64,000 nt of DNA. Origin: a virus. Lineage: Duplodnaviria > Heunggongvirae > Uroviricota > Caudoviricetes. Made by a program: the position numbers and the translations under genes. The notes below the pieces were generated by a model. It searched no databases. It was not told the DNA's origin and saw only the letters and a list, made by a program, of their open reading frames with translations. Below, piece after piece: positions 28,453 to 55,003 of the stretch (the first letter of the stretch is position 1; each line of letters begins with the position of its first letter). The DNA lies in IMG/VR virus record IMGVR_UViG_3300049215_000772, positions 1 to 64,000 of that record. The stretch is one strand, 5' to 3'.

Positions 28453-29061
28453 ATGAAACAAATTACATCGACTGGCGACGGCATGAACGTGCTGATCGTT
28501 TGCGATTACTCTCCGCATCATCACTGGATGACGTTCGCCTCCTGGTATTCTTTCGCCAAGATGTTGCCGGATGCCAACGTGGAGATTTCTTGCAATCGCC
28601 TTCCTGTAACCTGGCAGATGTTTGATTGGGCCAGGACTTGTAAGGTCAAACTGCGCATTCATCAGCCGCTTACCAAAGAAGAAATCATCAGAAGTTATAG
28701 CGGCCCATTGATCGTGGTCGATCCAGATGTTTTGATGATTCGTGAAATTGCCGATAGCGAACTAGAATTCTACCAGAAGACTCCCTTTGCGAAATCGGGA
28801 AAGGTTTGGATTGTCAACGATCCAACTGCTGTTCCTACGCAAGCGGACGTGTGCTGCGATGTGAAAGAAGAGAAAATATGCACATTTGTAGCTTATCCGG
28901 GTGGGTGGGGTAAGTTTGTTACGTCATCATGGATAAATAAGATAAGTACGCCTTTCCAGCACAGGTTCGGGAAGGGCGAAATGACTTCCAATGAGGTCAA
29001 GGTCGAGAGATTGTGGAAGCAACTTTCACCCATTTTCCAAACCGTATCGAGGATAACATGA
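28453..29061 (+). CDS. hypothetical protein
   Basis: ORF only. Confidence 0.4.
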   Translation: MKQITSTGDGMNVLIVCDYSPHHHWMTFASWYSFAKMLPDANVEISCNRLPVTWQMFDWARTCKVKLRIHQPLTKEEIIRSYSGPLIVVDPDVLMIREIADSELEFYQKTPFAKSGKVWIVNDPTAVPTQADVCCDVKEEKICTFVAYPGGWGKFVTSSWINKISTPFQHRFGKGEMTSNEVKVERLWKQLSPIFQTVSRIT

Positions 29062-29357
29062 GACGATTCGATTATGACGACAACGAGGAATATCGTGAGG
29101 ATGTCGATAATTTCTTCGACAGTGGTAGCGATGAAGGTATTACGCCGGACGAATATCGTGCCATCGTCAAGCAAGAACAAGAGATGCAGGCAGTACAACT
29201 GAATCTTGCCTATCGTGACATGAACAGCCATCTTCTTTGTCGGGCCATCAAGATGTTGGAGAAAGGTTTCTGGTGGAGGTTCTACTCCCTCGATACTAAA
29301 CTGAAGATGATCGAAAGGACATACCATCGCCTGAAAAGGGCGGTAGATAGAGGATGA
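29058..29357 (+). CDS. hypothetical acidic protein
   Basis: GAGGA RBS; ATGA overlap with the upstream stop. Confidence 0.4.
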   Translation: MRRFDYDDNEEYREDVDNFFDSGSDEGITPDEYRAIVKQEQEMQAVQLNLAYRDMNSHLLCRAIKMLEKGFWWRFYSLDTKLKMIERTYHRLKRAVDRG

Positions 29358-29358
29358 A

Positions 29359-29700
29359 ATGCCACACTACGAGTTTCAATGCAAGAAGTGCGATTCGGTC
29401 TACGATGAGATCGTTTCCTACGACGAGAAGAACAAGTATCCGACAGTGAAGTGTCCCAAGTGCGGGAGCAAGAAGAAGACCAAACTGCTGAGTCAGATCG
29501 GCGGCATCATCTTCGCTAATGCCAGGGAATCCAGCAAGTGGGACAACTTCACCTACCGGGCCGGCAAAACGGCGGACGAGGCCAAGGAGTGCCGTCGCCA
29601 GGCAGAAGAAGCGTCCCATATGGGAGCCGATCCGTACCACAGTGCGGCACAGATCGCTGCTGACATCAACAACGACGCCAATTACGGCGAAGTTAAATAG
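29359..29700 (+). CDS. FmdB-family zinc-ribbon protein
   Basis: 'MPHYEFQCKKCDSVYDE...KCPKCGS'. Confidence 0.5.
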   Translation: MPHYEFQCKKCDSVYDEIVSYDEKNKYPTVKCPKCGSKKKTKLLSQIGGIIFANARESSKWDNFTYRAGKTADEAKECRRQAEEASHMGADPYHSAAQIAADINNDANYGEVK

Positions 29701-30490
29701 TCGTTGGGTCTTTTTCTTCTGTTTCCAGTACCTTCTCCTTCGGCGCACGGAACAACAGGGCTTCGATTTCTTGATCCCAGCCTTCTTCTCCAAGTGCTTC
29801 CCTCACTGCTTGTAGCACTTCGGGCTTCTGGTAGTCGGGATGCTCTAGGTAGTTGCTTTCGTAGACGTGGAAGCAGTTCTTGTTTCCTACCGCTCCCAAG
29901 TACAACTCCGTGAACCACAGCCCATGCTTGCCGTAGTTGACAGTGGACGTGACGTAGCAACGACCACCCGTTGACAGGCATGGCCACATGACTTTCCAGT
30001 GCCATTCCATCCTTGGGATGAAGGCTGCTTCGTCGATCACGAGATGGGTGCAAGCCCTGCCTCGTGCGGCTTGTGGGATGCTGAAGATGATGTCGCTGCC
30101 CGTGGCGGCGAATGTCTTCTCTCGTAGGTTGTTCCTTTCCATTCTTGGCTGCATCCAGGTCGGCAGCAGTTGAATTGATAGGTTGAACATTTCCGACCAG
30201 TTCTCGGCTTCTCCCTTGCTTTTGCAAATCCAGATGATTCGCTTCTTCTCCCGGAACATACATTGGTGCAAGCAGTACAGCATGTGAACGGTACTGATTC
30301 CACCTTGCCGCCATTTTTTAGAAATGACGAAACGATTCTCTTCTAATTCAGCCGCCAAGCGAAGTTGCCAAGACGACAATTCAAAGGGCAGCAGCCCCCG
30401 TAATGGGTGTTGGTACTTGATGTAATTCTTGCAGAAGTATGGGAAACTTTCGGCACACTTGATGATTTCGTTGGCTTGTTTTACCAGCAT
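29693..30490 (-). CDS. terminase large subunit-like ATPase domain (no nuclease domain)
   Basis: 'FPYFCKNYIKYQHP...PFELSSWQ...FVISKKWRQGGISTV' (deviant Walker A as in TerL families) and Walker B 'HLVIDEAAF'; only about 265 aa. Confidence 0.45.
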   Translation of the reverse strand: MLVKQANEIIKCAESFPYFCKNYIKYQHPLRGLLPFELSSWQLRLAAELEENRFVISKKWRQGGISTVHMLYCLHQCMFREKKRIIWICKSKGEAENWSEMFNLSIQLLPTWMQPRMERNNLREKTFAATGSDIIFSIPQAARGRACTHLVIDEAAFIPRMEWHWKVMWPCLSTGGRCYVTSTVNYGKHGLWFTELYLGAVGNKNCFHVYESNYLEHPDYQKPEVLQAVREALGEEGWDQEIEALLFRAPKEKVLETEEKDPTTI

Positions 30491-30604
30491 TGGTTTTCCT
30501 TTCTAATTAAGTCTTGTCGGGTTATATGGTCCGACTTACGATATTTATGCGGCTTGTCTCCATCTGCATCTGGAAAAAATATCGAGGATATTTCTACAGC
30601 ACAC

Positions 30605-30633
30605 TTGATCGAGGTTGAAGGCAAGGGTATATT
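30605..30633 (+). promoter_or_regulatory. sigma70-like promoter upstream of prkA
   Basis: TTGATC - 17 nt - TATATT, about 35 nt upstream of the AGGGAG RBS and ATG. Confidence 0.4.
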
Positions 30634-30667
30634 GCTCTGACACCTGGACTCAATACGCAGGGAGAAT

Positions 30668-32779
30668 ATGATGGAATACGCACCGGAGGTAAAGATGAAT
30701 CACCTGAAGAGAGTGACGGGACTTTTCGACAAGAACAAGTTTCGGCAACTGAACGCTGAGATGAGCATGGCAGAGTATCTTGACCTCTGCTTGAAGAACC
30801 CACGGCTGGGCCGGAATGCCTGGCAGATGATTTACGACATGATTATGGAGGATGGTTCCGAGACTTTCGAGCAATATCGGAAAACCTACACTCACTACAA
30901 CTTTTTCGACGACCCTGAAATCCCCATCATCGGTCTGGCTGAGACGAAGGACGCCTTGGTGAAGTTCATCAAGGGCGCTGCCGGTCACTACGGCACTGAG
31001 AAGCGTGTGCTTCTGTTGCACGGACCTGTCGGTAGCTCCAAGTCCACCATTTGCCGCCTTATCAAGCGGAGACTGGAAAAGTACAGTCACACGGATGCTG
31101 GCGCATGGTACTCCTACAAGTGGGTGAATTTGCCCACGGGTGAGGACGGTATCTACACCAACCCGGAGAACGAGTGCCCACTGCACGAGAATCCACTCAA
31201 GCTGCTTCCTTTGGAAGTGCGTGAGCCTTTCCTGGCGGAAATGAACGCCACCCTATTGGAAATGCAGGAGGCCGACAAGAAGGCGGGTGCCGCCAAGGAA
31301 CACTACACCCTTCGCATGGACGGCGAGTTGAATCCACGCTGCAAGTTGTTCATGAATGAACTGCTCAAGCGTTACCAGGGCGACCTGGAGAAAGTTTTGA
31401 GCGAACACATCGTTGTTGTCCGCAAGGTGTACAGCGAAGTGGATCGTTGTGGTATTGCAACCTTCCAGCCGAAGGATGAGAAGAACCAGGACTCGACCGA
31501 GTTGACGGGCGACATCAACTTCGGCCTCATCTCCAAGTTCGGTTCCGACTCTGACGCCCGTGCCTTCAATTTCGACGGCGAGTTTTGCTGCGGCAATCGT
31601 GGCATGATCGAGTTCATCGAAGCCCTGAAGCTGGATCAGGCGTTCCTGTATGACTTGCTGGGTGCCAGCCAGGAACAAAGCATCAAGCCGAAGAAGTTCA
31701 GCCAGGTGTTGATTGACGAAGCTATCTTCGCCCACACCAACGACGCTGAATACCAGAAGTTGAAGTCCAACCAGTACATGGAAGCCCTTCGTGACCGTAC
31801 CGTGAAGATCACGGTTCCGTACACCCGGAAGTGGGACGAAGAAACCAAGATTCTGGAGAAGGACTACGGCCCCGGCAAGGTTCGTCAACACATCGCTCCT
31901 CACACGAGGGAAATCGCCGCTTTGTGGGCAGTGCTGACCCGCCTCCAGGACGACAAGGATGGCAAACTATCCCTCGTCGAGAAGGCTGAATTGTACAACG
32001 GCAAGCTGCTCCCTGGTTGGACCGAGGACGCAGTGAAGGAACTGATGGACAAGCACCCCGAAGAAGGCATGACCGGCGTATCCGTGCGGTACGTTCAGGA
32101 CAAGTTCTCGAACTGCCTGTCCAACAACCACGAGTACGTCAATACCTTCATGGTGTTGAACGAACTGCGTGATGGTTTGCACGACTCGTCGCTGCTGACG
32201 AACAAGGATCAGGTTAGCCGGTACATTACCTGCATCGACCTGGCTCTCAAGAAGCTGACGGAAATCCTCAAGGCTGAAGTCCAGAAGGCTTTGGTCGGCG
32301 ATGAGGATTCGGCGATCAGGCTGTGCGCCAACTACATCGACAATGTGATGGCCTACATCAACAAGGCCAAGGTCCGTGACAAGGTGACGGGCCAGGACCG
32401 CAAGCCGGATGAGCGGCTGATGCGGCAGGTGGAAGAGAAGATCGAGATTCCCGACCAGGGAGCCGATGACTTCCGCCGTCAGATCGCTGCCTTCATCGGT
32501 GATCTTGCTCACAAGGGCAAGCAGTTCAAGTGGGATAGCAATCCGAAGCTGAAGAAGGCTTTGGAAATGAAGCTGTTCGAGGATGTGAAGGACACCATCA
32601 AGTTGTCGGCCCTCAATGTGTCGGCGGCTACGGTCGTGGACAAGGACATCCAGCAGCGTATCCAGGATTTGAAGACCAGACTCATTAACCAGTATGGTTA
32701 CAACGAACAGAGCGCAACTGACGTGCTGGACTTCGTTGGCGGCATCTTCGCCCGTGGCGACCTGGCAGAAGAAGAGTAA
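30668..32779 (+). CDS. prkA: PrkA/YeaG-family serine protein kinase (AAA+ N-domain + kinase domain)
   Basis: 'LLLHGPVGSSKST' P-loop, 'GNRGMIEFIEALK', 'AIFAHTNDAEY', and the PrkA C-domain; colinear with E. coli YeaG. Confidence 0.9.
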   Translation: MMEYAPEVKMNHLKRVTGLFDKNKFRQLNAEMSMAEYLDLCLKNPRLGRNAWQMIYDMIMEDGSETFEQYRKTYTHYNFFDDPEIPIIGLAETKDALVKFIKGAAGHYGTEKRVLLLHGPVGSSKSTICRLIKRRLEKYSHTDAGAWYSYKWVNLPTGEDGIYTNPENECPLHENPLKLLPLEVREPFLAEMNATLLEMQEADKKAGAAKEHYTLRMDGELNPRCKLFMNELLKRYQGDLEKVLSEHIVVVRKVYSEVDRCGIATFQPKDEKNQDSTELTGDINFGLISKFGSDSDARAFNFDGEFCCGNRGMIEFIEALKLDQAFLYDLLGASQEQSIKPKKFSQVLIDEAIFAHTNDAEYQKLKSNQYMEALRDRTVKITVPYTRKWDEETKILEKDYGPGKVRQHIAPHTREIAALWAVLTRLQDDKDGKLSLVEKAELYNGKLLPGWTEDAVKELMDKHPEEGMTGVSVRYVQDKFSNCLSNNHEYVNTFMVLNELRDGLHDSSLLTNKDQVSRYITCIDLALKKLTEILKAEVQKALVGDEDSAIRLCANYIDNVMAYINKAKVRDKVTGQDRKPDERLMRQVEEKIEIPDQGADDFRRQIAAFIGDLAHKGKQFKWDSNPKLKKALEMKLFEDVKDTIKLSALNVSAATVVDKDIQQRIQDLKTRLINQYGYNEQSATDVLDFVGGIFARGDLAEEE

Positions 32780-32793
32780 TCCCGTCTTAGGGT

Positions 32794-32841
32794 GGGGCGG
32801 GCGGCTTCCTTCAGTCCACGAGGCCGCACCGCCCCTTTTTT
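32794..32841 (+). terminator. rho-independent terminator after prkA
   Basis: 12-bp GC stem (one bulge) 'ggggcgggcggc...gccgcaccgcccc' followed by TTTTTT. Confidence 0.6.
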
Positions 32842-32855
32842 CAAGGTGGAGAGAC

Positions 32856-33071
32856 ATGAACAACCACTGGTTGAATGAAGCAAAGTACAAGAAGATGTTC
32901 AAGGAGATCGACGAGGCTGCAATGGAAGCCTGGGGTGAAGATGGCACGCTGGCCGATCTCATCAACTCCTTGGATGACGAGCAAACGGCGCTTTTGATGG
33001 GAATGAAGATCAAGGATGTTGCCGCCGACCTTGACGACTATGAGTTCGGCTTGACTCTCATCAAGCCATAA
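32856..33071 (+). CDS. small acidic protein
   Basis: GGTGGAGAG RBS; 71 aa. Confidence 0.4.
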   Translation: MNNHWLNEAKYKKMFKEIDEAAMEAWGEDGTLADLINSLDDEQTALLMGMKIKDVAADLDDYEFGLTLIKP

Positions 33072-33091
33072 CAACTAACAGGTAAACAACA

Positions 33092-34564
33092 ATGGACGAA
33101 TTTCAAGACTTTATCGACGTTTCTTGTCAAAGCGGCATTATTGAAGAATTGGCGAACAATAACTGTCCGTTTCTGTCGTTACTTTGTGAGCTAATTGACA
33201 ATGTGGCAGCAGAATTGGAACATTGTCAGACCGCCCGTGTTCACATCAAAATTGGTGGCCCTTGGACGACTATTGCCTCAAACAACAGTAAAGTCCTTGA
33301 TCTACAACAGGCATACATGGAGGTTTCTGATAACGCAACTGGCATTAAGTCTGACCGGCTTGCTCATTGTTTGTCGCTGGCTGCGAAACCGGAAAGCAGT
33401 GGTACGTTGCATGAGCATGGGCTGGGCATGAAGACGGCCATCATGAGTCTTGGTAAGTTGGATTATCTCATCACTAAGACGAAGGATGAGGATTTTGCTT
33501 CTCGCATCGACGAACTTACCATTGGTAAAATTCTGCGGCGCAAAGATACTGATACTTTCAAAAAAGGCGAAAGTGGCACGATCATTCGCCTCAAGAACTT
33601 GAAGCCGAAGGTTTACAAAGAGAAGCGATTGTATCTGAGGAATGTTATCGACCACCTTGGCGCTCGCTACGCCCGGCTTCTCACCAAGAACCAAATGACC
33701 GGACGCAAATTGGACATCCAATTTGATTTGCTCGATGAAAACGACAATGTGCGTGATAGCTGGACAATTCAGCCTTGTTTTCCTTTCTACGAAAACAACG
33801 GACGCAACATATTGAAAGAAGAGTTCGGCGGCAATAATTGGGGAGCGCAGCTTGAATTTGGATTCACTCCTTCTGAGTCAGAGTATATCCAAAATGGACT
33901 TGAGGTTCCGGCCAACTCCCATCCTTACAAACGGAATTGTCGGGTGATTGATGTTGTTCACCATGATAGAGTTCTTTGTCGGCTGGGAGCAGATGATTTG
34001 TACCCAGGCTCTCACTATATGTTTGCTCCATTTGTTGGCGTTCTTACTTTGAGGTATGGTTTTCGTACTTCGATGACCAAGGATGGGGTTTTGCGAGATG
34101 AGAACTGGAATGAACTTCTCGAAAAAGTGGTGGATGTCACCAAGGGACTTGTGGAGGAGTATGTTCGACGATACGAACGGCTCACCCAGGACGAAAAAGA
34201 CTACCGAGATCAGTTGTATCAAATTCAAACTAAAGGAGAGGACAAGGAGGTATTGAAAGAGTTTGCTGTTGAGGGAACTGATGGCAACATTGATTTGTTG
34301 GTCAATGACGAAGTGTGGGAACTCAAGGCAGAACAGGCCCAAGGGATTGATGTGTACCAGGTGTTGTATTACATCGACACCTGCGATAAAGCCAAGAAAA
34401 CTAGCGGACGCCTGATTGCTCCGTCTTTTTCTGACGGGTGTAAATGGACTGCCCAACATTTGAAAAAGACAAGGAAGGTTGATGTGAAGTTGAAGACATT
34501 TGAGGATGTCGGTTTGGTGAAGGGTATTGCAGCGAAAAAGAAAGCAAAAAAGAAGTCCATGTGA
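33092..34564 (+). CDS. GHKL (Bergerat-fold, HATPase_c) ATPase
   Basis: N-box 'ELIDNVAAE', G1 'SDNATGI', G2 'HGLGMKTA'. Confidence 0.6.
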   Translation: MDEFQDFIDVSCQSGIIEELANNNCPFLSLLCELIDNVAAELEHCQTARVHIKIGGPWTTIASNNSKVLDLQQAYMEVSDNATGIKSDRLAHCLSLAAKPESSGTLHEHGLGMKTAIMSLGKLDYLITKTKDEDFASRIDELTIGKILRRKDTDTFKKGESGTIIRLKNLKPKVYKEKRLYLRNVIDHLGARYARLLTKNQMTGRKLDIQFDLLDENDNVRDSWTIQPCFPFYENNGRNILKEEFGGNNWGAQLEFGFTPSESEYIQNGLEVPANSHPYKRNCRVIDVVHHDRVLCRLGADDLYPGSHYMFAPFVGVLTLRYGFRTSMTKDGVLRDENWNELLEKVVDVTKGLVEEYVRRYERLTQDEKDYRDQLYQIQTKGEDKEVLKEFAVEGTDGNIDLLVNDEVWELKAEQAQGIDVYQVLYYIDTCDKAKKTSGRLIAPSFSDGCKWTAQHLKKTRKVDVKLKTFEDVGLVKGIAAKKKAKKKSM

Positions 34565-35289
34565 TATTTGAAAGTTCTACACGAGCGCAGTACAATATGG
34601 GTATGCCAAACCATATATGCCAACAATGCGGTGTAGAATTCTACAACAAGAATAGCGGTGCTAGGTACTGCTCGCAGCAATGTACCAAGAACAGCACCAA
34701 GAAAGGCACGAGCGGCAAATGCTACAACTGCGGTAAGGAAGTTTATATTCCGAACCATAAGAACATCCAGAAGACCTTCTGTAGTTGGGAATGCAACATG
34801 GAGGCCCAGCGCAAGAGACGCCCGACTAGGGTGTGTAAGCACTGCGGAAGGGAATTCAAGAAGAAGGCCAGGAGCAATGCGATGTTTTGTTCTCCAGCCT
34901 GCCGTTTGAGTTCAGAATACAACATGCAACAACTTGCCGCCATGAGGAAGAAACAGGCCGGCAAGAAGCCCACCAAATTGGAATTATTGGGATATAGCAT
35001 CCTCGATGAGATCGGCCTGGAGTATGAGAAACAGTACATATTCGACAGATTTGTGGCCGATGCCTATGTTAAAGAACTGAACCTGATCGTACAATTTGAT
35101 GGCGATTACTGGCACGGCAATACCAGTAAGTTTCCGACGCTCTCGGAGTTTCAGATGAAGCAAACAGAAAGAGATCGCCGAGCAGATGCAAAAGCCCGTG
35201 ATCTTGGGCATCGAGTCATCCGGTTGTGGGAATCGGATGTCTACAAGGATCAACAAGCAGTGAAGAACCGCATACTGTTGAAGGAGTGA
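34561..35289 (+). CDS. zinc-ribbon + Vsr-like endonuclease (putative Vsr-family homing/nicking endonuclease)
   Basis: Several CxxC pairs at the N-terminus; C-terminus 'LIVQFDGDYWHGN...ERDRRADAKARDLGHRVIRLWESDV' matches the Vsr 'F.DGCFWHG...ERD.RD...L...GW.V..VWE'; GTG at 34561 or ATG at 34597. Confidence 0.6.
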   Translation: MIFESSTRAQYNMGMPNHICQQCGVEFYNKNSGARYCSQQCTKNSTKKGTSGKCYNCGKEVYIPNHKNIQKTFCSWECNMEAQRKRRPTRVCKHCGREFKKKARSNAMFCSPACRLSSEYNMQQLAAMRKKQAGKKPTKLELLGYSILDEIGLEYEKQYIFDRFVADAYVKELNLIVQFDGDYWHGNTSKFPTLSEFQMKQTERDRRADAKARDLGHRVIRLWESDVYKDQQAVKNRILLKE

Positions 35290-35292
35290 AAG

Positions 35293-36513
35293 ATGCCCCG
35301 GAGGATCGAAGAAGATCACAAAGATTTTCGAGACGTAGTTTCAGGAAAGATTCGCAAAGCCCTCAAGAAGTTCATCAAGTCGGGCCAGATATTCCGCAAC
35401 CGTGGAAAGAACGGCAAGATTTCCATTTCTATCCCCAAGATTGACATCCCTCACATCGTCTACGGCGACACGGGAGAAGGTGTTGGGCGTGGTCCTGGAA
35501 AGCCCGGTGACGTGATTGGCAAAGACCCGCAACCTGGACAGGGTGCAGGCCAGGAGTCCAGCGAAGGTATCACCATCAATCTGGACCTGGAAGAAGTCCT
35601 CAAGTTCATGCAGGACGACTTGGCCCTGCCGAACCTGAAGCCGAAGCCGAACGAGACGTTTGAAGACATCAAGATCAAGTACAACAACATCTCGCTGGTC
35701 GGCCCCGAAAGCCTGCGTCACAACCGCAGAACTTTCCTCCAGGCCATCAAGCGACAGGCGTGCATGGGCACCCTGGATGATCTGCACATGGTTCCTGGCT
35801 GCAAGGAACCCAGGAAGATCATCACTCCCTGGCCGGCTGACAAGCGTTACCGCCAGTACAACGAAATCCGCATTCCGTCGAGCAACGCCCTTATCGTCTA
35901 CGCCCGTGATGGGTCAGGAAGTATGGATGCTGTGAAGTGCGACATCGTGTCGGACATGGCGTGGTGGATCGACGTGTGGATCAGAAGGTTTTACACCCGT
36001 GTCGAGCGCATGTATGTCTGGCATGACTCCGCTGCGATGGAAGTGGACGAAGAGAAATTCTACAAGTACAGGTTCGGCGGCGGTACTACCTGTTCGTCTG
36101 CGTTGAAGTTTATCACCAAGCAGTTCGAGAACAGGTTCCCACCGCAGAAGTGGAATGTCTACGTTTTCTATTTCTCGGACGGCGAGAATTGGGGCGAAGA
36201 TAATGAAGTGTTCATCAACACCCTGAAGGAAGAGTTCCAGCCTCATATTGTGAACTTTGTCGGCATCACGCAGATTCTTGCTTACAATTACGATGGCTCC
36301 CTGAAGCATATTGTCGATGAGGCGATTAAGTCCAACATACTCGACAAGGATCAGGTGAGAACAGTGTCCATTGGTCAGGAAACTACGCCGGCTGCTGGTA
36401 GTCCGTGGAGTCCGCCCAGCTTGACGGAAGAACAACGCAACGAACAAGTGCTGCGGGCCATCAAGCAACTGCTGGGCAGCAAGAAGTCCGACAAGGAGGA
36501 GAAGGACGACTGA
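35293..36513 (+). CDS. yeaH: YeaH/YhbH (DUF444, vWA-like) protein
   Basis: 'DLALPNLK', 'DGSGSMD', 'SDGENWGED' match E. coli YeaH 'DLALPNLK', 'DVSGSMD', 'SDGDNW'. Confidence 0.85.
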   Translation: MPRRIEEDHKDFRDVVSGKIRKALKKFIKSGQIFRNRGKNGKISISIPKIDIPHIVYGDTGEGVGRGPGKPGDVIGKDPQPGQGAGQESSEGITINLDLEEVLKFMQDDLALPNLKPKPNETFEDIKIKYNNISLVGPESLRHNRRTFLQAIKRQACMGTLDDLHMVPGCKEPRKIITPWPADKRYRQYNEIRIPSSNALIVYARDGSGSMDAVKCDIVSDMAWWIDVWIRRFYTRVERMYVWHDSAAMEVDEEKFYKYRFGGGTTCSSALKFITKQFENRFPPQKWNVYVFYFSDGENWGEDNEVFINTLKEEFQPHIVNFVGITQILAYNYDGSLKHIVDEAIKSNILDKDQVRTVSIGQETTPAAGSPWSPPSLTEEQRNEQVLRAIKQLLGSKKSDKEEKDD

Positions 36514-36749
36514 TGTTTTACTACTGTATGGCCTGCGGTGAGGAGTTGGAGTCACCAGGAATAGGGTATTACTATTCCCAAGAGTGTAAGAAGTGTAACA
36601 AGTTCAACGTCAGTGTATATTGGTATGGCTACGATGTAAACATTGACGACAAGTTCTTCCATTTTGATGAATCTGGCTATGGGAACAGGGAAAGCCAACA
36701 AGCCTTAGAGGAATACCTCAAGCAAAGGAGCGAGCAAAATGGGCAATAA
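36512..36749 (+). CDS. small zinc-ribbon protein coupled to yeaH
   Basis: TGATG overlap with the yeaH stop; 'CMACGEE...CKKCNK'. Confidence 0.45.
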
Positions 36750-38334
36750 GTTCATGCACGGATCGAGCATCTTGCTCGGCGACAATACAGTTCCCGGCGT
36801 GCAACTCCCAAAGGAGATGAAGGAAAACGTCCCCATCATCCTTCAGGCTTGTCGGGATTGGGGGTTGGATTTCTACCCCACAGTGGTCCAACTGCTGACC
36901 TACGACGAAATCTCCGAGATCGCTGCCTACGGCGGCTTCCCGGTCAGGTATCCTCATTGGCAGTTCGGTATGGAGTACGAAGAACTTCAGCGGGGCTATG
37001 AGTTTGGGATGCACAAGATTTACGAGATGGTCATCAACACCAATCCCTGCTACCAGTGGTTGCTGAGTTCCAACAGTCTGGAAGACAACCTGACCGTCGT
37101 GGCTCATGCTACAGGGCACAATGACTTCTTCAAGAACAACATCCATTTCAGCGCCACCGACACCAACATGCTGAACAAGATGGCGAACCACGGCACCCGT
37201 ATTCGCCGTTACATGACCAGGTGGGGCAAGGAGCGTGTTGTTGAGTTCATCGACCATGTTCTGCGGCTGGAGACGTTGATCGACGGGGCTGAGGCGTGGA
37301 CACAGAAAACGATCCGGGACAGGAACCTTTCGGATCAAAGGAAGTACCGCCATCCGAGAAGGTTGAAGGTGAGCAAGGAACGGCTCTACATGGAACCGTT
37401 CATCAACACACGGGACTTCCGCCAGGAAGAAAACAAGCGGATTTCCAAGCTGGACACGGCGGACGAAATTGGCCTGTTCACTGATCCGACCAAGGATATT
37501 CTTGGTTTCCTGCGGGACAATGCTCCTCTCAAACCGTGGCAGCAGGACATTGTTGCCATGTTGTATGAAGAAAGTTTGTACTTCTATCCGCAAAGACAAA
37601 CTAAGGTAATGAACGAAGGGTGGGCCTCGCTGACCGACCATATTATCATGGCCCGGCAGGGTTATATCGCCCTGGGTCAGAAACAGCATGATATGGGTAT
37701 TGTTGAGTATGCCGCTCACAAGATGGGAGTTCTTGGCGGCAAGTACAGCATGAACCCGTACAAGCTGGGCTTCTACTTGTTCCTGGACATTGAAGAAAGA
37801 TGGAACAAGGGCCAGTTCGGTACGGAGTGGGATGAGTGCGACGACATCAGGAAGAAGGAAAAGTGGGACACTGGCGCAATGCTCGGCAAGGAGAAGATTT
37901 TCGAGATCAGGAAGTATTATGACGACCTGACTTTCCTGAATGAGTTCTTCACCGAGGACTTCTGCCGGGCACAGGAATACTTCTACTGGAAGCACTATCC
38001 GAATGGTGAGTACCGATTGGAGCATCGTGACTTCAAGGAAATCAAGGCTGGGTTGATGCGCCGCCACCTGAACGGAGGGTTGCCTTCCATCAAGCTGACT
38101 GAGCCGAACTACCGTGGCAAGGGGTTCATGATGCTCCAGCATGATTGGGACGGGCGTGCGATTTACGATCCGTATGTTCGTGATGTTATGACTTCGTTGC
38201 GATTCTTGTGGGGCAACGACATTTTCTTGGCAACGAAGGACGATGATGGCCGAGAAGCCATTTATGGTTGCTATGGAACTGCCGAGGATGATGTTGAATT
38301 GGTTTCCCGCAAGGACCATATGAAGGATTGGTAA
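36739..38334 (+). CDS. spoVR: SpoVR/YcgB-family protein
   Basis: 'WGLDFYP...AAYGGFPVRYPHWQFGMEYE', 'HATGHNDFFKNN' and full-length colinearity with SpoVR. Confidence 0.85.
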   Translation: MGNKFMHGSSILLGDNTVPGVQLPKEMKENVPIILQACRDWGLDFYPTVVQLLTYDEISEIAAYGGFPVRYPHWQFGMEYEELQRGYEFGMHKIYEMVINTNPCYQWLLSSNSLEDNLTVVAHATGHNDFFKNNIHFSATDTNMLNKMANHGTRIRRYMTRWGKERVVEFIDHVLRLETLIDGAEAWTQKTIRDRNLSDQRKYRHPRRLKVSKERLYMEPFINTRDFRQEENKRISKLDTADEIGLFTDPTKDILGFLRDNAPLKPWQQDIVAMLYEESLYFYPQRQTKVMNEGWASLTDHIIMARQGYIALGQKQHDMGIVEYAAHKMGVLGGKYSMNPYKLGFYLFLDIEERWNKGQFGTEWDECDDIRKKEKWDTGAMLGKEKIFEIRKYYDDLTFLNEFFTEDFCRAQEYFYWKHYPNGEYRLEHRDFKEIKAGLMRRHLNGGLPSIKLTEPNYRGKGFMMLQHDWDGRAIYDPYVRDVMTSLRFLWGNDIFLATKDDDGREAIYGCYGTAEDDVELVSRKDHMKDW

Positions 38335-38343
38335 TGAGGGTCA

Positions 38344-38526
38344 ATGGAGAAGTTTGAGATTACGTTATTCACAGGCGAAGGTTTGGCCGAGTTCACTGAT
38401 CGGCTCGGCTTCATTCTGATGGAACTTGGCGTGAAGTTCAGGGTGAAAGAGTTTCACGATGACTTCATGGTATTCGAGTTCATTCAGGCCGAGCGGCTAG
38501 ATGAAGATGGCAAGAAAAAAAGTTGA
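38344..38526 (+). CDS. hypothetical small protein
   Basis: ORF only. Confidence 0.3.
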   Translation: MEKFEITLFTGEGLAEFTDRLGFILMELGVKFRVKEFHDDFMVFEFIQAERLDEDGKKKS

Positions 38527-39184
38527 TTTGGTTGAATTGCTGGGCCAGGTTCACAACTACGAAGTGAACCTGGCTACCAGGGAAATTTACCTTCACAGTC
38601 ATTACAACGCCAGTGGGCCAGACGAAGAAAGTGGGGTGGAGTTTCGCATGGCTACCACCTTCATCAAGAATCTTCACGTTCTTGATCTCGCTGACGATGC
38701 GCCTATTTTAGTTCACCTTCAATCGCCTGGAGGGGATTGGGGTCACGGGATGGCGATATTCGACGCCATCCGAGCAACGAATTCCCCCGTCACTATCCTC
38801 GCTCACGGCGAAGTTTCATCCATGAGCGGCATCATATTCCAAGCGGCTGTACACCGCATAATGATGCCGAGTTGCGAGATGATGATCCACAGGGGCTTTT
38901 TGTCGTTGGATGGTGTTTCTTCAACAGTACAAGCCAACGCTTTGTGGAACAAAAGAACTGATACAAAGATGTTGCAAATATATGCGTCTCGTGCCATAAT
39001 GGGCAAGTATTTTACCCAGGGAAACATGACGCATCAGCAGGTGTTGCGTTTCATCGACCGAAAGATTCAGAAGGTTGGAGATTGGAACCTGGACGCCGAG
39101 CAAGCCGTTTTCTACGGTTTGGCAGATGGCATATATGGCGAGCCTGGGTATGACACACTCAAAGAAATTCGGAGATTAGCATGA
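38501..39184 (+). CDS. clpP: ClpP-family serine peptidase
   Basis: 'LQSPGGDWGHGMAIFDAI', Ser in 'GEVSSMSG', His in 'MMIHRG'. Confidence 0.7.
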   Translation: MKMARKKVDLVELLGQVHNYEVNLATREIYLHSHYNASGPDEESGVEFRMATTFIKNLHVLDLADDAPILVHLQSPGGDWGHGMAIFDAIRATNSPVTILAHGEVSSMSGIIFQAAVHRIMMPSCEMMIHRGFLSLDGVSSTVQANALWNKRTDTKMLQIYASRAIMGKYFTQGNMTHQQVLRFIDRKIQKVGDWNLDAEQAVFYGLADGIYGEPGYDTLKEIRRLA

Positions 39185-41474: not shown

Positions 41475-42902
41475 ATGAAGAAATGTGAAATTTGCGGGTT
41501 TGAACACCTGCATCTCCATACCGATTTCAGCCTTCTCGATGGCTATGGGATGGTTGAGGAATATGCTCTCCGGGCACCCAAAATCAACCAGAAATTTCTG
41601 ACAGTTTCCGACCACGGTATGATGGGCGTGGTCCCCCGTCAGATCAAAGCATGTGAGAACATCTGCAAAGCCAACGGCAAAGATGCCCTCTCCCCCATTT
41701 TTGCCTGTGAACTATATGTCAACCGCCTCCAGCCTGAATGCAACAACCCGAACGATATGCAGAAGTTCATGAAGGGTCTGAATGAGGAAGACCTTCGTGA
41801 AGTGCGCCAATATGGGGCACACCTTCTTGCTATCGCCTACAACGAAACAGGTTACAAAAACCTGGTCCGACTTTCTTCCTGGGGCTGGACCAAGGGCTTC
41901 TATCGCCGGCCCAGGGTTAATTACGATCAACTCATCAAGCATCGTGAGGGCTTGTTTTTCACGTCCTGCTGCTACGCTTCTGAGGTCGGCAAAGCCTTCG
42001 ACCGTGGCCTCAAGATCAGCGAAGAAGCCGCCTACGAAGCTGGATACCAGATGATCCAGCGCTACCTGGATATGTTTGGTCGGGAGCATTACTTTCTGGA
42101 AATGATGCTCCTTGACTTCAAGAAACAGAAGCCCTATGACAAATTCATCGTGGCGGCTGCCGAGAAGTTTGGGTTGCGGCTCATCATCACCAATGATTGC
42201 CACTACTGCCAGCAGGAAGACAGCCACTACCAGCGGCTTATGTTGATGGTGCAGACGAACCGCACCCTCCAGGAAATCCAGAAGGCAATGGCTGAAGACT
42301 CCATGCAGGACTTCTTCGAGTTGCAGGACGCCAACTTGTGGATGAAGTCCGAGGAGGAAATCAACGAGAAGTGGTTGCGGGACTACAGCGATGTGATCCC
42401 CTACGAACTTTTCTGTGAGGCCAAGCGCAACACGGTCTGGATTTGCAACAAGGCCAAGGGCGTCAAGTTGGATCGCAGCCTCAAGTTGCCCGTGTTGGAT
42501 GGGGCCGATGAAAAACTCAAGGAAGAGATCATGAGGGGTTTCGCCAAGCGTGGACTGCCCAAAACCCGTGAATATCTGGATCGTATCAAGGAAGAATACA
42601 GCCTCATCTGGCGGAAGGGGTTTTCCTCCTACTTCCTGCTTCAGAAGATGATGACCGATGAGGCTCGGCGTGTCAGCCCGCAATTGTTGGGTTGGGGTGA
42701 CGGCAGCGAAGCCGTGGGTCCGGGCCGTGGTAGCGCTGTTGGTGCCCTCACTTGCTACTGTTTGGGAATTACCGACGTGGACCCCGTATATGAAGGGTTG
42801 TTGTTCAGCCGCTTCATGAGCGAGGCCCGTGGCGGTAGGCATATTGTGTTGGATTTCCGTAACATTGATCCCCTGCCGCCCGACGAGGCATTCGCAGCAT
42901 GA
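41475..42902 (+). CDS. dnaE: DNA polymerase III alpha (DnaE-type) N-terminal fragment: PHP domain through the start of the palm
   Basis: 'HLHLHTDFSLLDG' PHP motif; 'GPGRGSAVGALTCYCLGITDVDPV...LLFSRF' matches DnaE '[30 protein letters not shown]'; stops before the catalytic 'PDxDxD'. Confidence 0.8.
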   Translation: MKKCEICGFEHLHLHTDFSLLDGYGMVEEYALRAPKINQKFLTVSDHGMMGVVPRQIKACENICKANGKDALSPIFACELYVNRLQPECNNPNDMQKFMKGLNEEDLREVRQYGAHLLAIAYNETGYKNLVRLSSWGWTKGFYRRPRVNYDQLIKHREGLFFTSCCYASEVGKAFDRGLKISEEAAYEAGYQMIQRYLDMFGREHYFLEMMLLDFKKQKPYDKFIVAAAEKFGLRLIITNDCHYCQQEDSHYQRLMLMVQTNRTLQEIQKAMAEDSMQDFFELQDANLWMKSEEEINEKWLRDYSDVIPYELFCEAKRNTVWICNKAKGVKLDRSLKLPVLDGADEKLKEEIMRGFAKRGLPKTREYLDRIKEEYSLIWRKGFSSYFLLQKMMTDEARRVSPQLLGWGDGSEAVGPGRGSAVGALTCYCLGITDVDPVYEGLLFSRFMSEARGGRHIVLDFRNIDPLPPDEAFAA

Positions 42903-43148: not shown

Positions 43149-43177
43149 AAGCCCCGTGGTAGAATCCACGGGGCTTT
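43149..43177 (+). terminator. rho-independent terminator
   Basis: 9-bp stem 'gccccgtgg tagaat ccacggggc' followed by TTTTT. Confidence 0.5.
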
Positions 43178-43194
43178 TTCTATTTGGAGACAAC

Positions 43195-45051
43195 ATGAGC
43201 CGAGAAATCGACCAGAAGTGGCAGCAGAAGTGGGAAGAAACAGGTTTGTATAACGTGGACCTGAATACGGAGGGTCCAAAGTTCTACCTGCTTTCCATGT
43301 TCCCCTATCCGAGCGGGAATCTGCATCTCGGCCACTGGTATGCCCTGGCCCCCGCAGATGCCTACGCTCGCTTCCAGCGTATGCACGGCAAGGAAGTCTT
43401 CTTCCCGATGGGTTTCGACGCCTTCGGACTGCCGGCAGAAAATGCCGCCATCAAGCACAAGGTACAGCCGAAGGAATGGACGGAGAAGAATATCGCCCGG
43501 ATGACGGAACAACTCAAGACAATGGGTTGCATGTTCCCCTGGGAGTACACGCTGAGAACGTGTGATCCAAATTACTACAAGTGGAACCAGTGGTTGTTCC
43601 TTCAGTTCTACCACAAGGGACTGGTCTACAAGGACAACGCCCCCGTGGACTTCTGCCCGCAGTGCCAAACGACTGTGGCCAAAGAACAAGTTGTTGATGG
43701 CGACTGTGAGCGCTGTGGCACGCCGGTTGTTCAGAAGGCGATTCCTTCCTGGAAGTTGAGAATTACTTCCTACAAGGACGATTTGTTGAACTTCGCTGGC
43801 CTGGACTGGCCTGAGAAGGTCATCAAGATGCAGGAGAACTGGATCGCCGATCTGAGGGATTGGAACGTCTCTCGTCAGCGCATGTGGGGCACGCCCATCC
43901 CGATGATTAAGTGCCCGCAGTGTGGTGATGTGCCGGTGTCTACCTTCGATCTGCCGATCATGCTCCCGGATGATGCCGAATTCCTGCCCACGGGTGAGAG
44001 TCCACTGAAGCAACACCCGACTTTCAAGCATGTGGAATGTCCCAATTGTGAAGGTCCAGCCGAGCGGGAAACCGACACGCTGGACACTTTCTTCTGTTCG
44101 TCCTGGTATCAGTACGCCTACCTGAACCGGGATCGGGAGAATCAGGCATTCTACACCGATTGGGTCAACAACTGGTGTCCGGTGAACTTGTACACGGGCG
44201 GCATCGAACATGCTTGTATGCACTTGTTGTACTTCCGATTCTTCAGCAAGGCGATGCTGGATTGTGGCATCTTGTCGGAAGAGTTCACGATTCCTCGTGC
44301 TGAACCTGCCAAGAAGTTGTTCAATCAGGGCATGATCTTGGGGCCGGACGGCTACAAGATGAGCAAGTCCAGGGGCAACGTGGTCGATCCCGATGAATTG
44401 GTTGAGGACTACGGGGCAGACGTGGTTCGGGCGGCTTTGATGTTCATTGGGCCGTGGGACCAGGGCGGCACCTGGAGTATCAACCTGGCGGGCATCGAGC
44501 GATTCCTGAATGATGTCGAGAAGATTGCCGCCATGCCGCCGAGGAATCAGGATCGGCTCAACCCGGAGTGTGCTGTTACCAGGGCGATAAATCGTACTTG
44601 TCCCAGGGTTTACAAGGACTATGAGGCGATGAAGTTCAACACTGTCATCTCCTGGCTGATGCAGCTTCGGAACGTGATGTTGGAACACTACGACACGACG
44701 CCGGGCTTGTCCTGGCAGAATGCCGTGGACTGTCTGTTGCTGATGCTGGCTCCTATCTGTCCTCATCGTACTGAGGAGGCGTGGAGCAAGATTCACAGTG
44801 AAGTAGGCAGCATTCACAAATACCCATTCCCGGCGAAGATCGCCCTGGAAGACCCGGAAACAGCAACTATTGTTATTCAGATCAACGGCAAGAAGCGGGC
44901 GCTGGTGGAACAAATGGACGGAGATGATCTGGACGACGTGTTGGAGTACCCCGAAGTGCAGGCCGTGGTAGAAGGGTTGGAAATTACCAGGACGGTGAAA
45001 GTTCCGGGTAGGATCATCAACTTCGTTGTGAAACGAACAATTGACGACTGA
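43195..45051 (+). CDS. leuS: leucyl-tRNA synthetase lacking the CP1 editing domain
   Basis: 'PYPSGNLHLGHW' (HIGH), 'GFDAFGLPAE', 'MQENWIADLRDWNVSRQRMWGTPIP', 'GGIEHACMHLLYFRFF', 'YKMSKSRGN' (KMSKS); where E. coli has about 190 aa of CP1 between 'MQRNWIG' and 'LRDWGVSRQR', here the two are directly fused; GGAG RBS. Confidence 0.85.
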   Translation: MSREIDQKWQQKWEETGLYNVDLNTEGPKFYLLSMFPYPSGNLHLGHWYALAPADAYARFQRMHGKEVFFPMGFDAFGLPAENAAIKHKVQPKEWTEKNIARMTEQLKTMGCMFPWEYTLRTCDPNYYKWNQWLFLQFYHKGLVYKDNAPVDFCPQCQTTVAKEQVVDGDCERCGTPVVQKAIPSWKLRITSYKDDLLNFAGLDWPEKVIKMQENWIADLRDWNVSRQRMWGTPIPMIKCPQCGDVPVSTFDLPIMLPDDAEFLPTGESPLKQHPTFKHVECPNCEGPAERETDTLDTFFCSSWYQYAYLNRDRENQAFYTDWVNNWCPVNLYTGGIEHACMHLLYFRFFSKAMLDCGILSEEFTIPRAEPAKKLFNQGMILGPDGYKMSKSRGNVVDPDELVEDYGADVVRAALMFIGPWDQGGTWSINLAGIERFLNDVEKIAAMPPRNQDRLNPECAVTRAINRTCPRVYKDYEAMKFNTVISWLMQLRNVMLEHYDTTPGLSWQNAVDCLLLMLAPICPHRTEEAWSKIHSEVGSIHKYPFPAKIALEDPETATIVIQINGKKRALVEQMDGDDLDDVLEYPEVQAVVEGLEITRTVKVPGRIINFVVKRTIDD

Positions 45052-47559: not shown

Positions 47560-47920
47560 GGGGGCGCAACGGCTTCTACGGAGTGTGATGTGACTGAAGT
47601 GGCACGCACTGGTTGGTCAGCAGGCCAGTATAAAAGCAGACCATCGCTTTAACCGGCGAAACTCAGTTCGCAATGGCGGCTTGACCGCCAGGGCTTGAAG
47701 GAAGCGACGTGATTTAGCGTCTTTCTAGCCCTCGCAAAATAATCACTGGCTTCACCCTTGCAGATACGGTGAAGTGAGAAACCGATTCTGCTGGTCCCAA
47801 CCGGCCTTTGTCTGTTGTCGGTAAGTTGGGGTGAGACGCCGAAAGGCAAAACAACAGAACAAGCGTGTAGATGCTCATTCACTAGCAGTTCGGACAGGGG
47901 TTCGACTCCCCTCGCCTCCA
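47560..47920 (+). ncRNA. ssrA: tmRNA (ssrA), one-piece, about 361 nt, CCA not encoded
   Basis: 5' 'GGGGGCGCAACGGCUUCUACGG' (compare E. coli 'GGGGCUGAUUCUGGAUUCGACGG'); 3' 'UUCGGACAGGGGUUCGACUCCCCUCGCCUCCA' (compare 'UUCGGACGCGGGUUCAACUCCCGCCAGCUCCA'). The 7-bp acceptor stem GGGGGCG/CGCCUCC keeps the G3:U70 alanine identity pair. Internal tag frame 47646..47684 'GCU UUA ACC GGC GAA ACU CAG UUC GCA AUG GCG GCU UGA' gives (AL)TGETQFAMAA*. Confidence 0.75.
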
Positions 47921-47935
47921 CTGGTGATTAGGCCA

Positions 47936-54097: not shown

Positions 54098-54872
54098 AGT
54101 GTTCTACTATTTTGGACGAAAGAGCCGTTTGGCTGACCTTTACCCCGCTCCTCGCCATGAACTGGTGATTGAGCCTTTTGCTGGGTCAATGGCATATACG
54201 TTGTATCACCAACCAACTAGGGCTATTGGCATTGAGTTGGATGATACTGTGGTTGAAGTTTGGAGCAAAATCTGTGGTTTGACGGCTCAGGAGTTGTTGG
54301 ATTATCCCGAACCGAAACGTGGAGATCGAACAGAAGATCGCTGGTGTATGATGGCGGGCGGCAGTCACGGAACGGCTAAGGCTAAGTCTTATCTGTGGAC
54401 CGAGAGAATGGAGCGTGATCTTCGCAAGCAAAAGCGAATGGCTGCCCGGTATGTTGATTATGCAAAGCAGCATATCGAATACAAATCGGGAAAATACCAG
54501 GATGCTCCAGATGAGGAGGCGACCTGGTTTATTGATCCGCCCTATCAGAACATCAAGCGGGGGTATCGCAGGGACGTTGATTACAAGGAACTTGCGGATT
54601 GGTGTAAGAAGCGACGAGGGCTGGTGATCGTCTGTGAACAGAGCGGGGCGGATTGGCTGCCTTTTAAGCCTTTGGAGAATATCAAGGGAACCAACAACAA
54701 GCGCACTTCGGAAGTTGTCTGGCTTGCTCTCAATGGTAAGGAAATAGTAAATGTCCGTCCTCATGTGAAGTTGCCCTGGTCAATTTACGCTCGTTTTAAG
54801 AAGGATTGCCGTCAAAATCGCAAGAAACAGTCGGATGTTTTGGCGAAGTTGATTGAACAACATCTTGGTTGA
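54087..54872 (+). CDS. dam: DNA N6-adenine methyltransferase (Dam-like, alpha group)
   Basis: Motif I 'EPFAGSMAY' (FxGxG) and motif IV 'DPPY' in alpha-class order. Confidence 0.65.
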   Translation: MEVEVFYYFGRKSRLADLYPAPRHELVIEPFAGSMAYTLYHQPTRAIGIELDDTVVEVWSKICGLTAQELLDYPEPKRGDRTEDRWCMMAGGSHGTAKAKSYLWTERMERDLRKQKRMAARYVDYAKQHIEYKSGKYQDAPDEEATWFIDPPYQNIKRGYRRDVDYKELADWCKKRRGLVIVCEQSGADWLPFKPLENIKGTNNKRTSEVVWLALNGKEIVNVRPHVKLPWSIYARFKKDCRQNRKKQSDVLAKLIEQHLG

Positions 54873-54879
54873 GGTTTCC

Positions 54880-55003
54880 ATGACGATTGCCTGGGATGAA
54901 ATTGTCTCTATTGAGCAAGTGGAGGATGGACAGTGCTATGACATCACTCTTCTCGAAGATGATGTTTACTTGGATGAGCCGAATTTCATTGCTGATGGGA
55001 TCG
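54880..55003 (+). mobile_element. split intein C-fragment (IntC, about 41 aa)
   Basis: Blocks F/G 'CYDITL...[12 protein letters not shown]' (compare Npu IntC 'VYDIGVERDHNFALKNGFIASN|C'). Confidence 0.65.

Follow-up and report, generated by a model that had tools for sequence, protein, structure and literature searches.

The 64,000-nucleotide stretch analysed here (positions 1 to 64,000 of the IMG/VR virus record IMGVR_UViG_3300049215_000772, hereafter the window) encodes PrkA/YeaG, YeaH (DUF444) and SpoVR/YcgB, the products of a gene set that ranks among the most widely conserved in bacteria. The biochemistry of this set is unsettled, and it has been called kinase, protease or neither. Sequence comparison indicates that the prkA-yeaH-spoVR trio is a lineage core of a clade of huge phages and not a recent add-on, and points to one old capture from bacteria followed by vertical inheritance. 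The three products may act together as an ATP-driven machine, as discussed below. That a whole huge-phage clade keeps its own copy under strong purifying selection suggests such a machine is useful outside the stress regulation of the cell, and a conserved, unexplained module can thus be counted among the cell-like functions that huge phages carry. The clade furthermore provides hundreds of diverged, co-evolving triplets for covariation analysis and complex modelling.

A clade of huge phages shares the trio

Relatives were collected by scanning IMG/VR with a PrkA pattern (E <= 1e-3), fetching the best 80 of 135 contigs, and running the same scan over 185,579 species genomes. The window PrkA has close relatives on at least 135 IMG/VR viral contigs; the best 80 are 61-87% identical to it and are located on contigs of up to 572 kb. 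At least 120 SpoVR clusters (59-86% identical) and at least 120 YeaH clusters (68-93%) were also found, on contigs of up to 609 kb. The order prkA-yeaH-spoVR, as determined by tblastn, is kept in every fetched locus with sufficient flanking sequence: it is shown in 78 of the 82 related phage loci, the remaining four ending before yeaH or spoVR. Bacterial PrkA sequences recovered in the species-genome scan are at most 54% identical, with the single exception of a 546-kb contig deposited as a 'Bacteriovoracaceae MAG' (metagenome-assembled genome; L084), considered below.

Neighbour-joining trees of all three proteins place the huge-phage sequences in one clade that contains no bacterial member. 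In trimmed alignments, identity within this clade ranges over 56-100% for PrkA, 46-100% for YeaH and 50-100% for SpoVR, compared to phage-versus-bacterial values of 49-58%, 31-44% and 33-42% respectively. Pairwise distances of the three proteins correlate with each other (r = 0.88-0.93). The ratio of nonsynonymous to synonymous substitution rates (dN/dS) between the window and its closest relative, IMGVR_UViG_3300049216_000192 (L004), is 0.10 for prkA, 0.08 for yeaH and 0.07 for spoVR. The single clade, the co-varying distances and the low dN/dS values together support the notion of an old, vertically inherited block under purifying selection. Given this clade-wide, vertical pattern, a reading of the trio as an isolated set of auxiliary genes was rejected.

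We propose that an ancestor of a large huge-phage clade captured the trio once from bacteria. Most relatives would then retain a tight operon consisting of a gene for an FmdB-type zinc ribbon, prkA, yeaH and spoVR, and a ClpP-like gene would often come next. In the genome studied here, accessory DNA would have invaded the block and left the three genes undamaged.

The three genes are intact, and their spacing is interrupted

All three genes are located on the + strand, in the order prkA (30668-32779, 703 amino acids), yeaH/yhbH (35293-36513, 406 amino acids) and spoVR/ycgB (36739-38334, 531 amino acids). PrkA consists of the Pfam AAA_PrkA domain and the PrkA C-terminal (pseudo)kinase-like domain, YeaH of an N-terminal region and a C-terminal vWA domain with an intact MIDAS (metal ion-dependent adhesion site) motif, and SpoVR of the Pfam SpoVR domain, which is free of inteins. 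The original prediction, made from the sequence alone, had assigned the three open reading frames (ORFs) to these families as co-oriented, full-length genes, and the Pfam profiles bear this out, with scores far above the gathering thresholds and near end-to-end coverage. PrkA scores 246.8 bits against AAA_PrkA (PF08298; cut-off 25, E = 4.5e-73, profile positions 1-355 of 358) and 251.8 bits against the C-terminal domain (PF06798; cut-off 25, E = 1.1e-74, positions 1-255 of 255). The corresponding values are 211.3 bits for YeaH against DUF444 (PF04285; cut-off 27, E = 3.3e-62) and 353.2 bits for SpoVR against PF04293 (cut-off 27, E = 2.1e-105, positions 6-403 of 407). A separate SpoVR C-terminal domain (PF24755) reaches 19.9 bits with a cut-off of 27.6; many close relatives have a precomputed match to it. 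Each member of the trio already has a PHROGs family (22605, 19072 and 35217), and YeaH matches PHROG 19072 with E = 1.6e-64.

None of the proteins reaches the NCBIfam equivalog cut-offs. PrkA scores 196 bits against the enterobacterial YeaG model (NF011999), which requires 576, and SpoVR 171 bits against that of Escherichia coli YcgB (NF008737), which requires 679. For YeaH, the best score (PRK05325 variants) is 310.9 bits with a cut-off of 388, and spore_yhbH gives 198 with a cut-off of 468. Hence, the three proteins are family members and not orthologue-grade copies of YeaG, YeaH and YcgB.

Family-invariant residues are retained in all three proteins. In PrkA these include the Walker A motif GPVGSSKS (119-126) and the blocks FQPKDEKNQD, NRG..EF.E.LK and LYDLL.ASQE; across 155 phage and bacterial homologs, 150 PrkA columns are at least 97% conserved. 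The trio genes are thus intact and not decaying: the view that they kept their signature blocks and are not decayed host fragments is upheld by the invariant residues and by the dN/dS values of 0.07-0.10. PrkA also aligns over its full length (E = 7e-200) with a solved 'Serine protein kinase' of 692 amino acids (PDB 9xip, 9xiq and 9xir, 30 chains in total). A literature search found no paper for these three entries. The structures should settle the oligomeric state and the domain arrangement of long-form PrkA.

The original prediction described a complete module. The three genes are indeed present and in the conserved order, but they are not contiguous, a point it omitted: adjacency is broken by insertions specific to the window and absent from L004. 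Nor is this a minimal version of the system, as had been suggested, since the phage proteins (703, 406 and 531 amino acids) equal or exceed their bacterial counterparts in length. Taken as a whole, the observation made in that prediction is confirmed and its interpretation is partly supported.

Inteins and a putative metal site in SpoVR

In-frame inserts are found in spoVR at two recurrent, invariant sites in 20 of 79 relatives (e.g. L010:9526-12411 and L013:13322-16066). They are located at N100|T101 and at A296|S297, the latter within the invariant NEGWAS motif, and some genes contain both. The inserted sequences are textbook inteins (...VVN|C...HN|T NPC and ...NEGWA|C...HN|S) that carry Intein_splicing and LAGLIDADG domains (proteins P0055, P0057, P0059 and P0100). 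Many IMG/VR relatives thus differ from the window, in which spoVR has no intein. Inteins typically lodge in conserved functional sites.

Two invariant histidines, H123 and H127, lie four residues apart on a long helix, and the NEGWAS motif (292-297) is found on a later helix. We take this motif to resemble the third-ligand motif 'LNEGFA' of the M1 family. The pattern H123-[A/V]-x-[G/A]-H127 occurs in all 98 phage and bacterial SpoVR sequences. Modelling suggests a moderate resemblance of SpoVR to zincin metalloproteins, with a probable His-His-Glu site (H123, H127 and E293) that would bind a metal. The intein sites act as independent pointers to the same SpoVR sites as the zincin-like motif, and together with the fold matches they name H123, H127, E293 and N100 as candidate functional residues. 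A SpoVR profile returned nothing at E <= 10 among PDB sequences, and a Foldseek comparison with the PDB gave nothing significant. Pfam searches at E <= 10 with SpoVR fragments, including a construct without the 142-261 insertion, returned only SpoVR itself.

Source of the DNA

The source of the window is a huge tailed phage (>200 kb). Among 50,697 GenBank phage records, the sole nucleotide-level match is LR756511.1, a complete 595-kb uncultured phage which carries prkA, yeaH and spoVR in the same order. The source contig is about 673 kb long: the window encodes a protein with a GHKL-type ATPase domain (see below), and a 100% identical copy was located on a contig of 673,178 bp. The window additionally encodes a major-head-protein-like gene, a gp32-like single-stranded DNA-binding protein, UvsX/RecA, a helicase and a thymidylate synthase; the PHROG matches comprise major head protein, gp32-like single-stranded DNA-binding protein, UvsX and terminase. 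The 64-kb window showed no portal or tail genes. The claim that the DNA is a phage genome and not a bacterial chromosome is therefore borne out by LR756511.1, by the 135 IMG/VR contigs and by the viral genes of the window itself.

A number of cell-like genes are also found. DnaE (DNA polymerase III alpha) is distributed over at least three ORFs spanning 15 kb on the + strand (41475-42902, 51214-52524 and 54853-56739), with other genes between them. Intein remnants are present, and an intein-splicing-like stretch closes the middle piece. A transfer-messenger RNA (tmRNA) gene with the tag GETQFAMAA is located at 47560-47921 (+), a class I aminoacyl-tRNA synthetase at 43156-45051 and a CCA-adding enzyme at 12983-14212 (-). 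A gene mix including tmRNA, synthetase, CCA-adding enzyme and split DnaE is typical of huge phages. A Bacteroidota host, suggested by the tmRNA tag, is unsupported given the strong Shine-Dalgarno motifs on most genes of the block.

Genes flanking and interrupting the trio

Directly upstream of the trio in the ancestral arrangement lies the gene for an FmdB-type CxxC...CxxC zinc-ribbon protein (29359-29700, +, 113 amino acids; Zn_ribbon_8, 2.5e-9; NCBIfam TIGR02605, 3e-12). It is present in 75 of the 82 related loci, in 63 of those within 400 bp upstream of prkA and on the same strand, and is absent from all 79 bacterial trio loci. It is thus a phage-clade-specific companion, normally placed directly upstream of prkA. 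Two genes upstream of prkA in that arrangement is a conserved ORF of 114 amino acids (29013-29357, +) with no Pfam or NCBIfam match; a profile search detects it in 80 of the 82 loci, and it is 68% identical to its L004 counterpart. On the other side of the trio, a ClpP-like serine peptidase of 227 amino acids is encoded at 38501-39184 (+; Pfam CLP_protease, 6.4e-22). Its matches to the NCBIfam ClpP and head-maturation-protease families are all below the cut-offs. Of the 67 loci with sufficient flank, 24 have a ClpP-like gene no more than 1 kb downstream of spoVR and on its strand, and in none of the 79 bacterial loci was one found beside the trio.

The insertions can be delineated by comparison to L004, in which the block is syntenic and collinear with 74-81% DNA and 85-90% protein identity. 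LR756511.1 carries the same block with proteins that are 57-65% identical (PrkA 65%, SpoVR 59%). Collinearity of the window with L004 is interrupted only at 33072-35292 and 36506-36737, corresponding to a GHKL and endonuclease cassette and to a zinc-ribbon ORF of 78 amino acids, both of which are lacking in L004 as well as in LR756511.1. In either case the insertion falls precisely between genes and translational coupling is preserved. A further element, a terminase-large-subunit-like N-terminal ATPase fragment of 265 amino acids (29693-30490, -), is located between the FmdB-type zinc-ribbon gene and prkA. It matches PHROG 5989 (1.4e-26) and, below the Pfam cut-off, Terminase_6N (2.5e-4). This fragment is shared with L004 only, being absent from the other 81 loci and from LR756511.1. 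It may represent a terminase copy that is split or degenerate, or else an ATPase that works on its own. The terminase-like fragment, the GHKL and endonuclease cassette and the 78-residue ORF all lie outside the conserved module.

The interval between prkA and yeaH contains a terminator, an ORF of 71 amino acids, the GHKL-ATPase gene and the endonuclease gene, with yeaH starting 3 nt past the last of these. The acidic 71-residue ORF (32856-33071, +) has a Shine-Dalgarno motif and is common to L004 only (79% identity, dN/dS 0.14); it is called as a gene on independent assemblies. The cassette that follows (33072-35292, 2,221 bp) stands in place of 9 bp in L004. Its first half encodes the GHKL-type ATPase (33092-34564, +, 490 amino acids; HATPase_c_3, Pfam 6.3e-6), for which tblastn detects no relatives in the 82 related loci. 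Only 10 homolog clusters were found among 5.8 billion proteins, and Lysinibacillus is the source of one. The two homologs for which the context was fetched (L167 and L168) are located on phage contigs, one T4-like and one of 487 kb, each in a different, unrelated genomic place. The idea that the GHKL protein is functionally tied to the trio was rejected, since the few homologs it has occupy other positions in the phage genomes that carry them.

The second gene of the cassette encodes a zinc-finger and DUF559/Vsr-like endonuclease (34561-35289, +; 242 amino acids from the GTG, or 230 from the ATG at 34597), with matches to Pfam DUF559 (5.3e-7), NCBIfam vsr (2.5e-7) and the HNH and homing-endonuclease families of PHROGs. 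It is a probable free-standing homing endonuclease. A 50%-identical endonuclease is found at the same prkA|yeaH junction in distant relatives whose PrkA is only 61% identical (L082:12104-12811 and L083:12104-12811), and this shared junction suggests site-specific homing. Neither gene of the cassette has a Shine-Dalgarno motif; the other genes of the block have them.

At the yeaH|spoVR junction, the CxxC...CxxC zinc-ribbon ORF of 78 amino acids (36513-36749, +) overlaps the yeaH stop through TGATG (36511-36515), and its 3' end overlaps the spoVR start at 36739. Translational coupling of this ORF to yeaH had been predicted correctly. Its membership of the module did not hold up, as it resides on a 232-bp insertion (36506-36737) that is private to this genome. 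L004 has 9 bp in its place, and there the stop of yeaH and the start of spoVR share a TAATG. The ORF has no homolog in the 82 related loci (tblastn) and no Pfam or PHROGs family match. PADLOC reports no defence match for PrkA, YeaH, SpoVR, the GHKL protein or this zinc-ribbon ORF, and only a marginal Vsr match (E = 0.0012) for the endonuclease.

Regulatory elements around prkA

A strong terminator after prkA had been predicted and is present as an intrinsic-terminator-like element (32794-32841, +), consisting of a G+C-rich hairpin (32794-32835) followed by T6 (32836-32841). A consensus terminator scan skipped this hairpin because its loop exceeds 8 nt; it was detected by direct reading and folding. 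Its folding energy over 75 nt is -36.9 kcal/mol (z -3.3), a stability that none of 200 shuffles reached. A comparable hairpin and T-run is found 3' of prkA in 20 of 61 distinct relatives, indicating that the prkA terminator is a feature of a sublineage. In the others of these 61, yeaH begins within a few tens of bases of prkA, leaving no room for a terminator.

The 177-bp divergent intergenic region upstream of prkA contains a candidate sigma70-type promoter (TTGATC-17-TATATT, 30605-30633, +). The sigma70-like promoter proposed originally stands in so far as 9 of 12 consensus positions match and both hexamers lie within blocks identical to L004, the sole relative with the same arrangement. It is undercut by the regional background, in which matches of this 9/12 type are barely enriched (13 in a 10-kb region, compared to 7.2 +/- 2.7 in shuffles), and the sequence thus provides a weak indication of a promoter dedicated to the prkA block. 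The intergenic region (30491-30667) is 86% identical to L004:3448-3635, with the flanking coding DNA at ~74%. The long blocks identical to L004 include an imperfect inverted repeat, AAATATC...GATATTT, which could be a regulator binding site.

A model for trio function and its alternatives

The most economical model places an AAA+ motor, a MIDAS adaptor and a zincin-like module in one machine. PrkA would be a ring-forming AAA+ ATPase motor. The modelled YeaH shows a vWA fold with an intact MIDAS motif (DxSxS...T...D), and the protein may serve as a vWA/MIDAS adaptor like those working alongside AAA+ ATPases in NorQ-NorD, midasin and the proteasome. With SpoVR as the zincin-like module, the trio would constitute a single ATP-driven protein-remodelling or proteolytic machine, possibly acting, over the lengthy infection cycle of a huge phage, on proteins of the host or of the phage itself. 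The genes yeaG, yeaH and ycgB display tight cofitness in six bacteria (bioRxiv 10.1101/072470), ATP-dependent casein hydrolysis has been reported for Bacillus subtilis PrkA (PMC9512850), and Bacillus anthracis PrkA has been placed in the FtsH/YME1-type AAA+ clade (PMC13001217). The cofitness study also reports an L-arginine growth phenotype in E. coli. The likeness to NorQ-NorD, midasin/Rea1, proteasome Rpn10 and FtsH is one of analogy and not of membership: PrkA is not a MoxR-type ATPase, and SpoVR has no HExxH glutamate and shows no sequence-level link to any peptidase family. We consider one capture, vertical inheritance of the block and use as such a machine to be, as a whole, a probable explanation of the data. 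A more specific version is tentative and rather doubtful: SpoVR as a diverged zincin-fold metalloprotein (His123, His127 and Glu293), and the trio as a split FtsH-type analogue kept clade-wide as a virus-owned remodelling or degrading device, together with the FmdB-type zinc ribbon and often the ClpP-like peptidase. If true, the functional centre of SpoVR would be where the inteins lodge, at VIN|T and NEGWA|S.

Several points weigh against the machine model and the single capture. The trees included only the bacterial homologs closest by pattern search, and a closer unsampled donor is possible. The phage copies are known from genes alone. The catalytic Glu of HExxH is never present among the 98 SpoVR sequences, and its replacement by an invariant Ala or Val suggests that SpoVR may bind a metal without being a peptidase; the convergence of H123, H127 and E293 in space is itself a prediction. 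A study of B. anthracis PrkA did not reproduce the protease activity (PMC13001217). Furthermore, with a terminator after prkA in this sublineage, the output of the three genes may be unequal.

Two alternatives concern the status of the DNA and of the genes. Were the window a misclassified fragment of a bacterial chromosome or plasmid, the trio would be an ordinary host operon. The RecA-like, DnaE, aminoacyl-tRNA synthetase, CCA-adding enzyme and tmRNA genes of the window do look bacterial, and two close relatives have been deposited as contigs of bacterial or archaeal MAGs. However, the contig assigned to Bacteriovoracaceae (L084; CALFYV010000090.1, 546,147 bp) carries the phage-type zinc-ribbon-prkA-yeaH-spoVR-ClpP block, and that assigned to a 'Crenarchaeota archaeon' (P0108; 546,492 bp) encodes a phage-clade SpoVR (61% identity); both are single contigs of ~546 kb that look like huge phages mis-binned into cellular MAGs. 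As the closest curated record is a complete phage, the block is shared by 135 viral contigs and genuine bacterial PrkA never exceeds 54% identity, this alternative is highly improbable and effectively excluded. The trio could also be a recently acquired passenger set, functionless for the phage and heading to decay, a reading that would suit the three insertions that hit the block in this genome. Those insertions nevertheless lie exactly between genes with coupling preserved, the invariant residues and low dN/dS values are those of maintained genes, and the phage clade is monophyletic over a span of 46-100% identity, so the probability of this scenario is negligible.

Other alternatives accept a maintained phage block and differ from the machine model in what it does. 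The trio may form a host-reprogramming module, with PrkA as a Ser/Thr kinase and YeaH and SpoVR as co-factors, that overrides or exploits a starvation, stationary-phase or dormancy programme and so keeps a starved cell productive. E. coli requires YeaG to adapt to sustained nitrogen starvation (PMC4664914), and the trio behaves as one pathway in the six bacteria of the cofitness study (bioRxiv 10.1101/072470). Huge phages carry many host-takeover genes, and the window itself has a tmRNA and an aminoacyl-tRNA synthetase. Kinase activity of PrkA is disputed, though: no kinase or autophosphorylation activity was detected for the B. subtilis or B. anthracis protein, and the Hanks motifs are degenerate (PMC9512850, PMC13001217). 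The sequence is also silent on the target of such a module. We regard host reprogramming by a kinase as unlikely; its chemistry differs from that of the machine model and the biology is the same, such that both could be partly true. Alternatively, the trio and the ClpP-like peptidase could act on phage proteins, in head maturation, scaffold removal or the assembly of large proteinaceous structures, a role reminiscent of the assembly defects that Bacillus prkA and spoVR mutants show in spore coat and cortex. The ClpP-like gene, with its head-maturation-protease-family matches, directly follows spoVR in the window and in 24 of 67 relatives, the terminase-like fragment adjoins prkA, and in the Thermus phage phiYS40 the trio lies ~1 kb from the large terminase gene. 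Against this, the ClpP-like matches are below all curated cut-offs and the gene is absent beside the trio in most relatives; the sole major-head-like gene of the window is 27 kb away and the neighbours of the trio are mostly replication and translation genes. A role confined to phage assembly or proteostasis is thus quite improbable.

Bacterial and previously known phage-borne trios

The block resembles the bacterial cluster (E. coli yeaGH and ycgB; B. subtilis prkA-yhbH and spoVR) in its three Pfam families, in its invariant motifs and in the gene order and orientation found in most bacteria. PrkA is of the long form (~690 amino acids), as in Chloroflexota, Planctomycetota, Myxococcota, Calditrichota and Bdellovibrionota. 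It differs in being virus-borne, with an FmdB-type zinc ribbon upstream and a ClpP-like gene downstream that are seen at no bacterial locus, and against the nearest bacterial copies its proteins reach identities of 50-54% (PrkA), 34-42% (YeaH) and 36-42% (SpoVR).

Among the 50,697 GenBank phage records, tblastn detects PrkA in 17 and SpoVR in 11. In the Thermus phage phiYS40/TMA, a cultured phage, all three families are clustered in genes 56-59, annotated as 'conserved bacterial protein', SpoVR, hypothetical and serine kinase. The order there is yeaH-spoVR-X-prkA, identity to the window proteins is 31% (PrkA), 32% (YeaH) and 24% (SpoVR), and the genome is of 152 kb and from a thermophile host, consistent with a separate acquisition. 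Relatives of phiYS40 and TMA likewise have the three families clustered. The phiYS40 genome (DQ997624) was published in 2006, as cited in PMC4605624. The 344-kb Ralstonia jumbo phage RsoM2USA has contiguous prkA-yeaH-spoVR in the same order as the window (ORF30-29-28; PMC8504454), with 25-32% identity and a short, E. coli-type PrkA (648 amino acids) that suggest an independent capture. Its authors listed SpoVR under replication/repair and PrkA under signal transduction, with no further analysis (PMC8504454). Three other uncultured phages (634-642 kb) carry distant copies. Taken together, the Thermus-phage, RsoM2USA and 634-642-kb phage copies are 24-33% identical to the window proteins and, by sequence, appear to be separate captures.

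The survey of co-occurrence that had been proposed with the original prediction hence finds the trio together in the huge-phage clade, in phiYS40/TMA and in RsoM2USA. A virus that carries the whole set is no novelty: phiYS40 and RsoM2USA already carry all three genes, PHROGs families exist, and phage-borne trios have been in GenBank since 2006, so that a trio in a phage is not a new kind of system. In the literature searched, no paper was found that treats the trio as a module of phages or describes it in huge ones. What is added here is its standing as a clade-wide huge-phage core, the phage-specific neighbours, the spoVR inteins and a possible likeness of SpoVR to zincins. A further phage record, Enterobacter phage LAU1 (GenBank MN688132.1, 30,772 bp), opens with a gene annotated YeaG (52-1875), which is likely host DNA at the end of the record rather than a phage gene.

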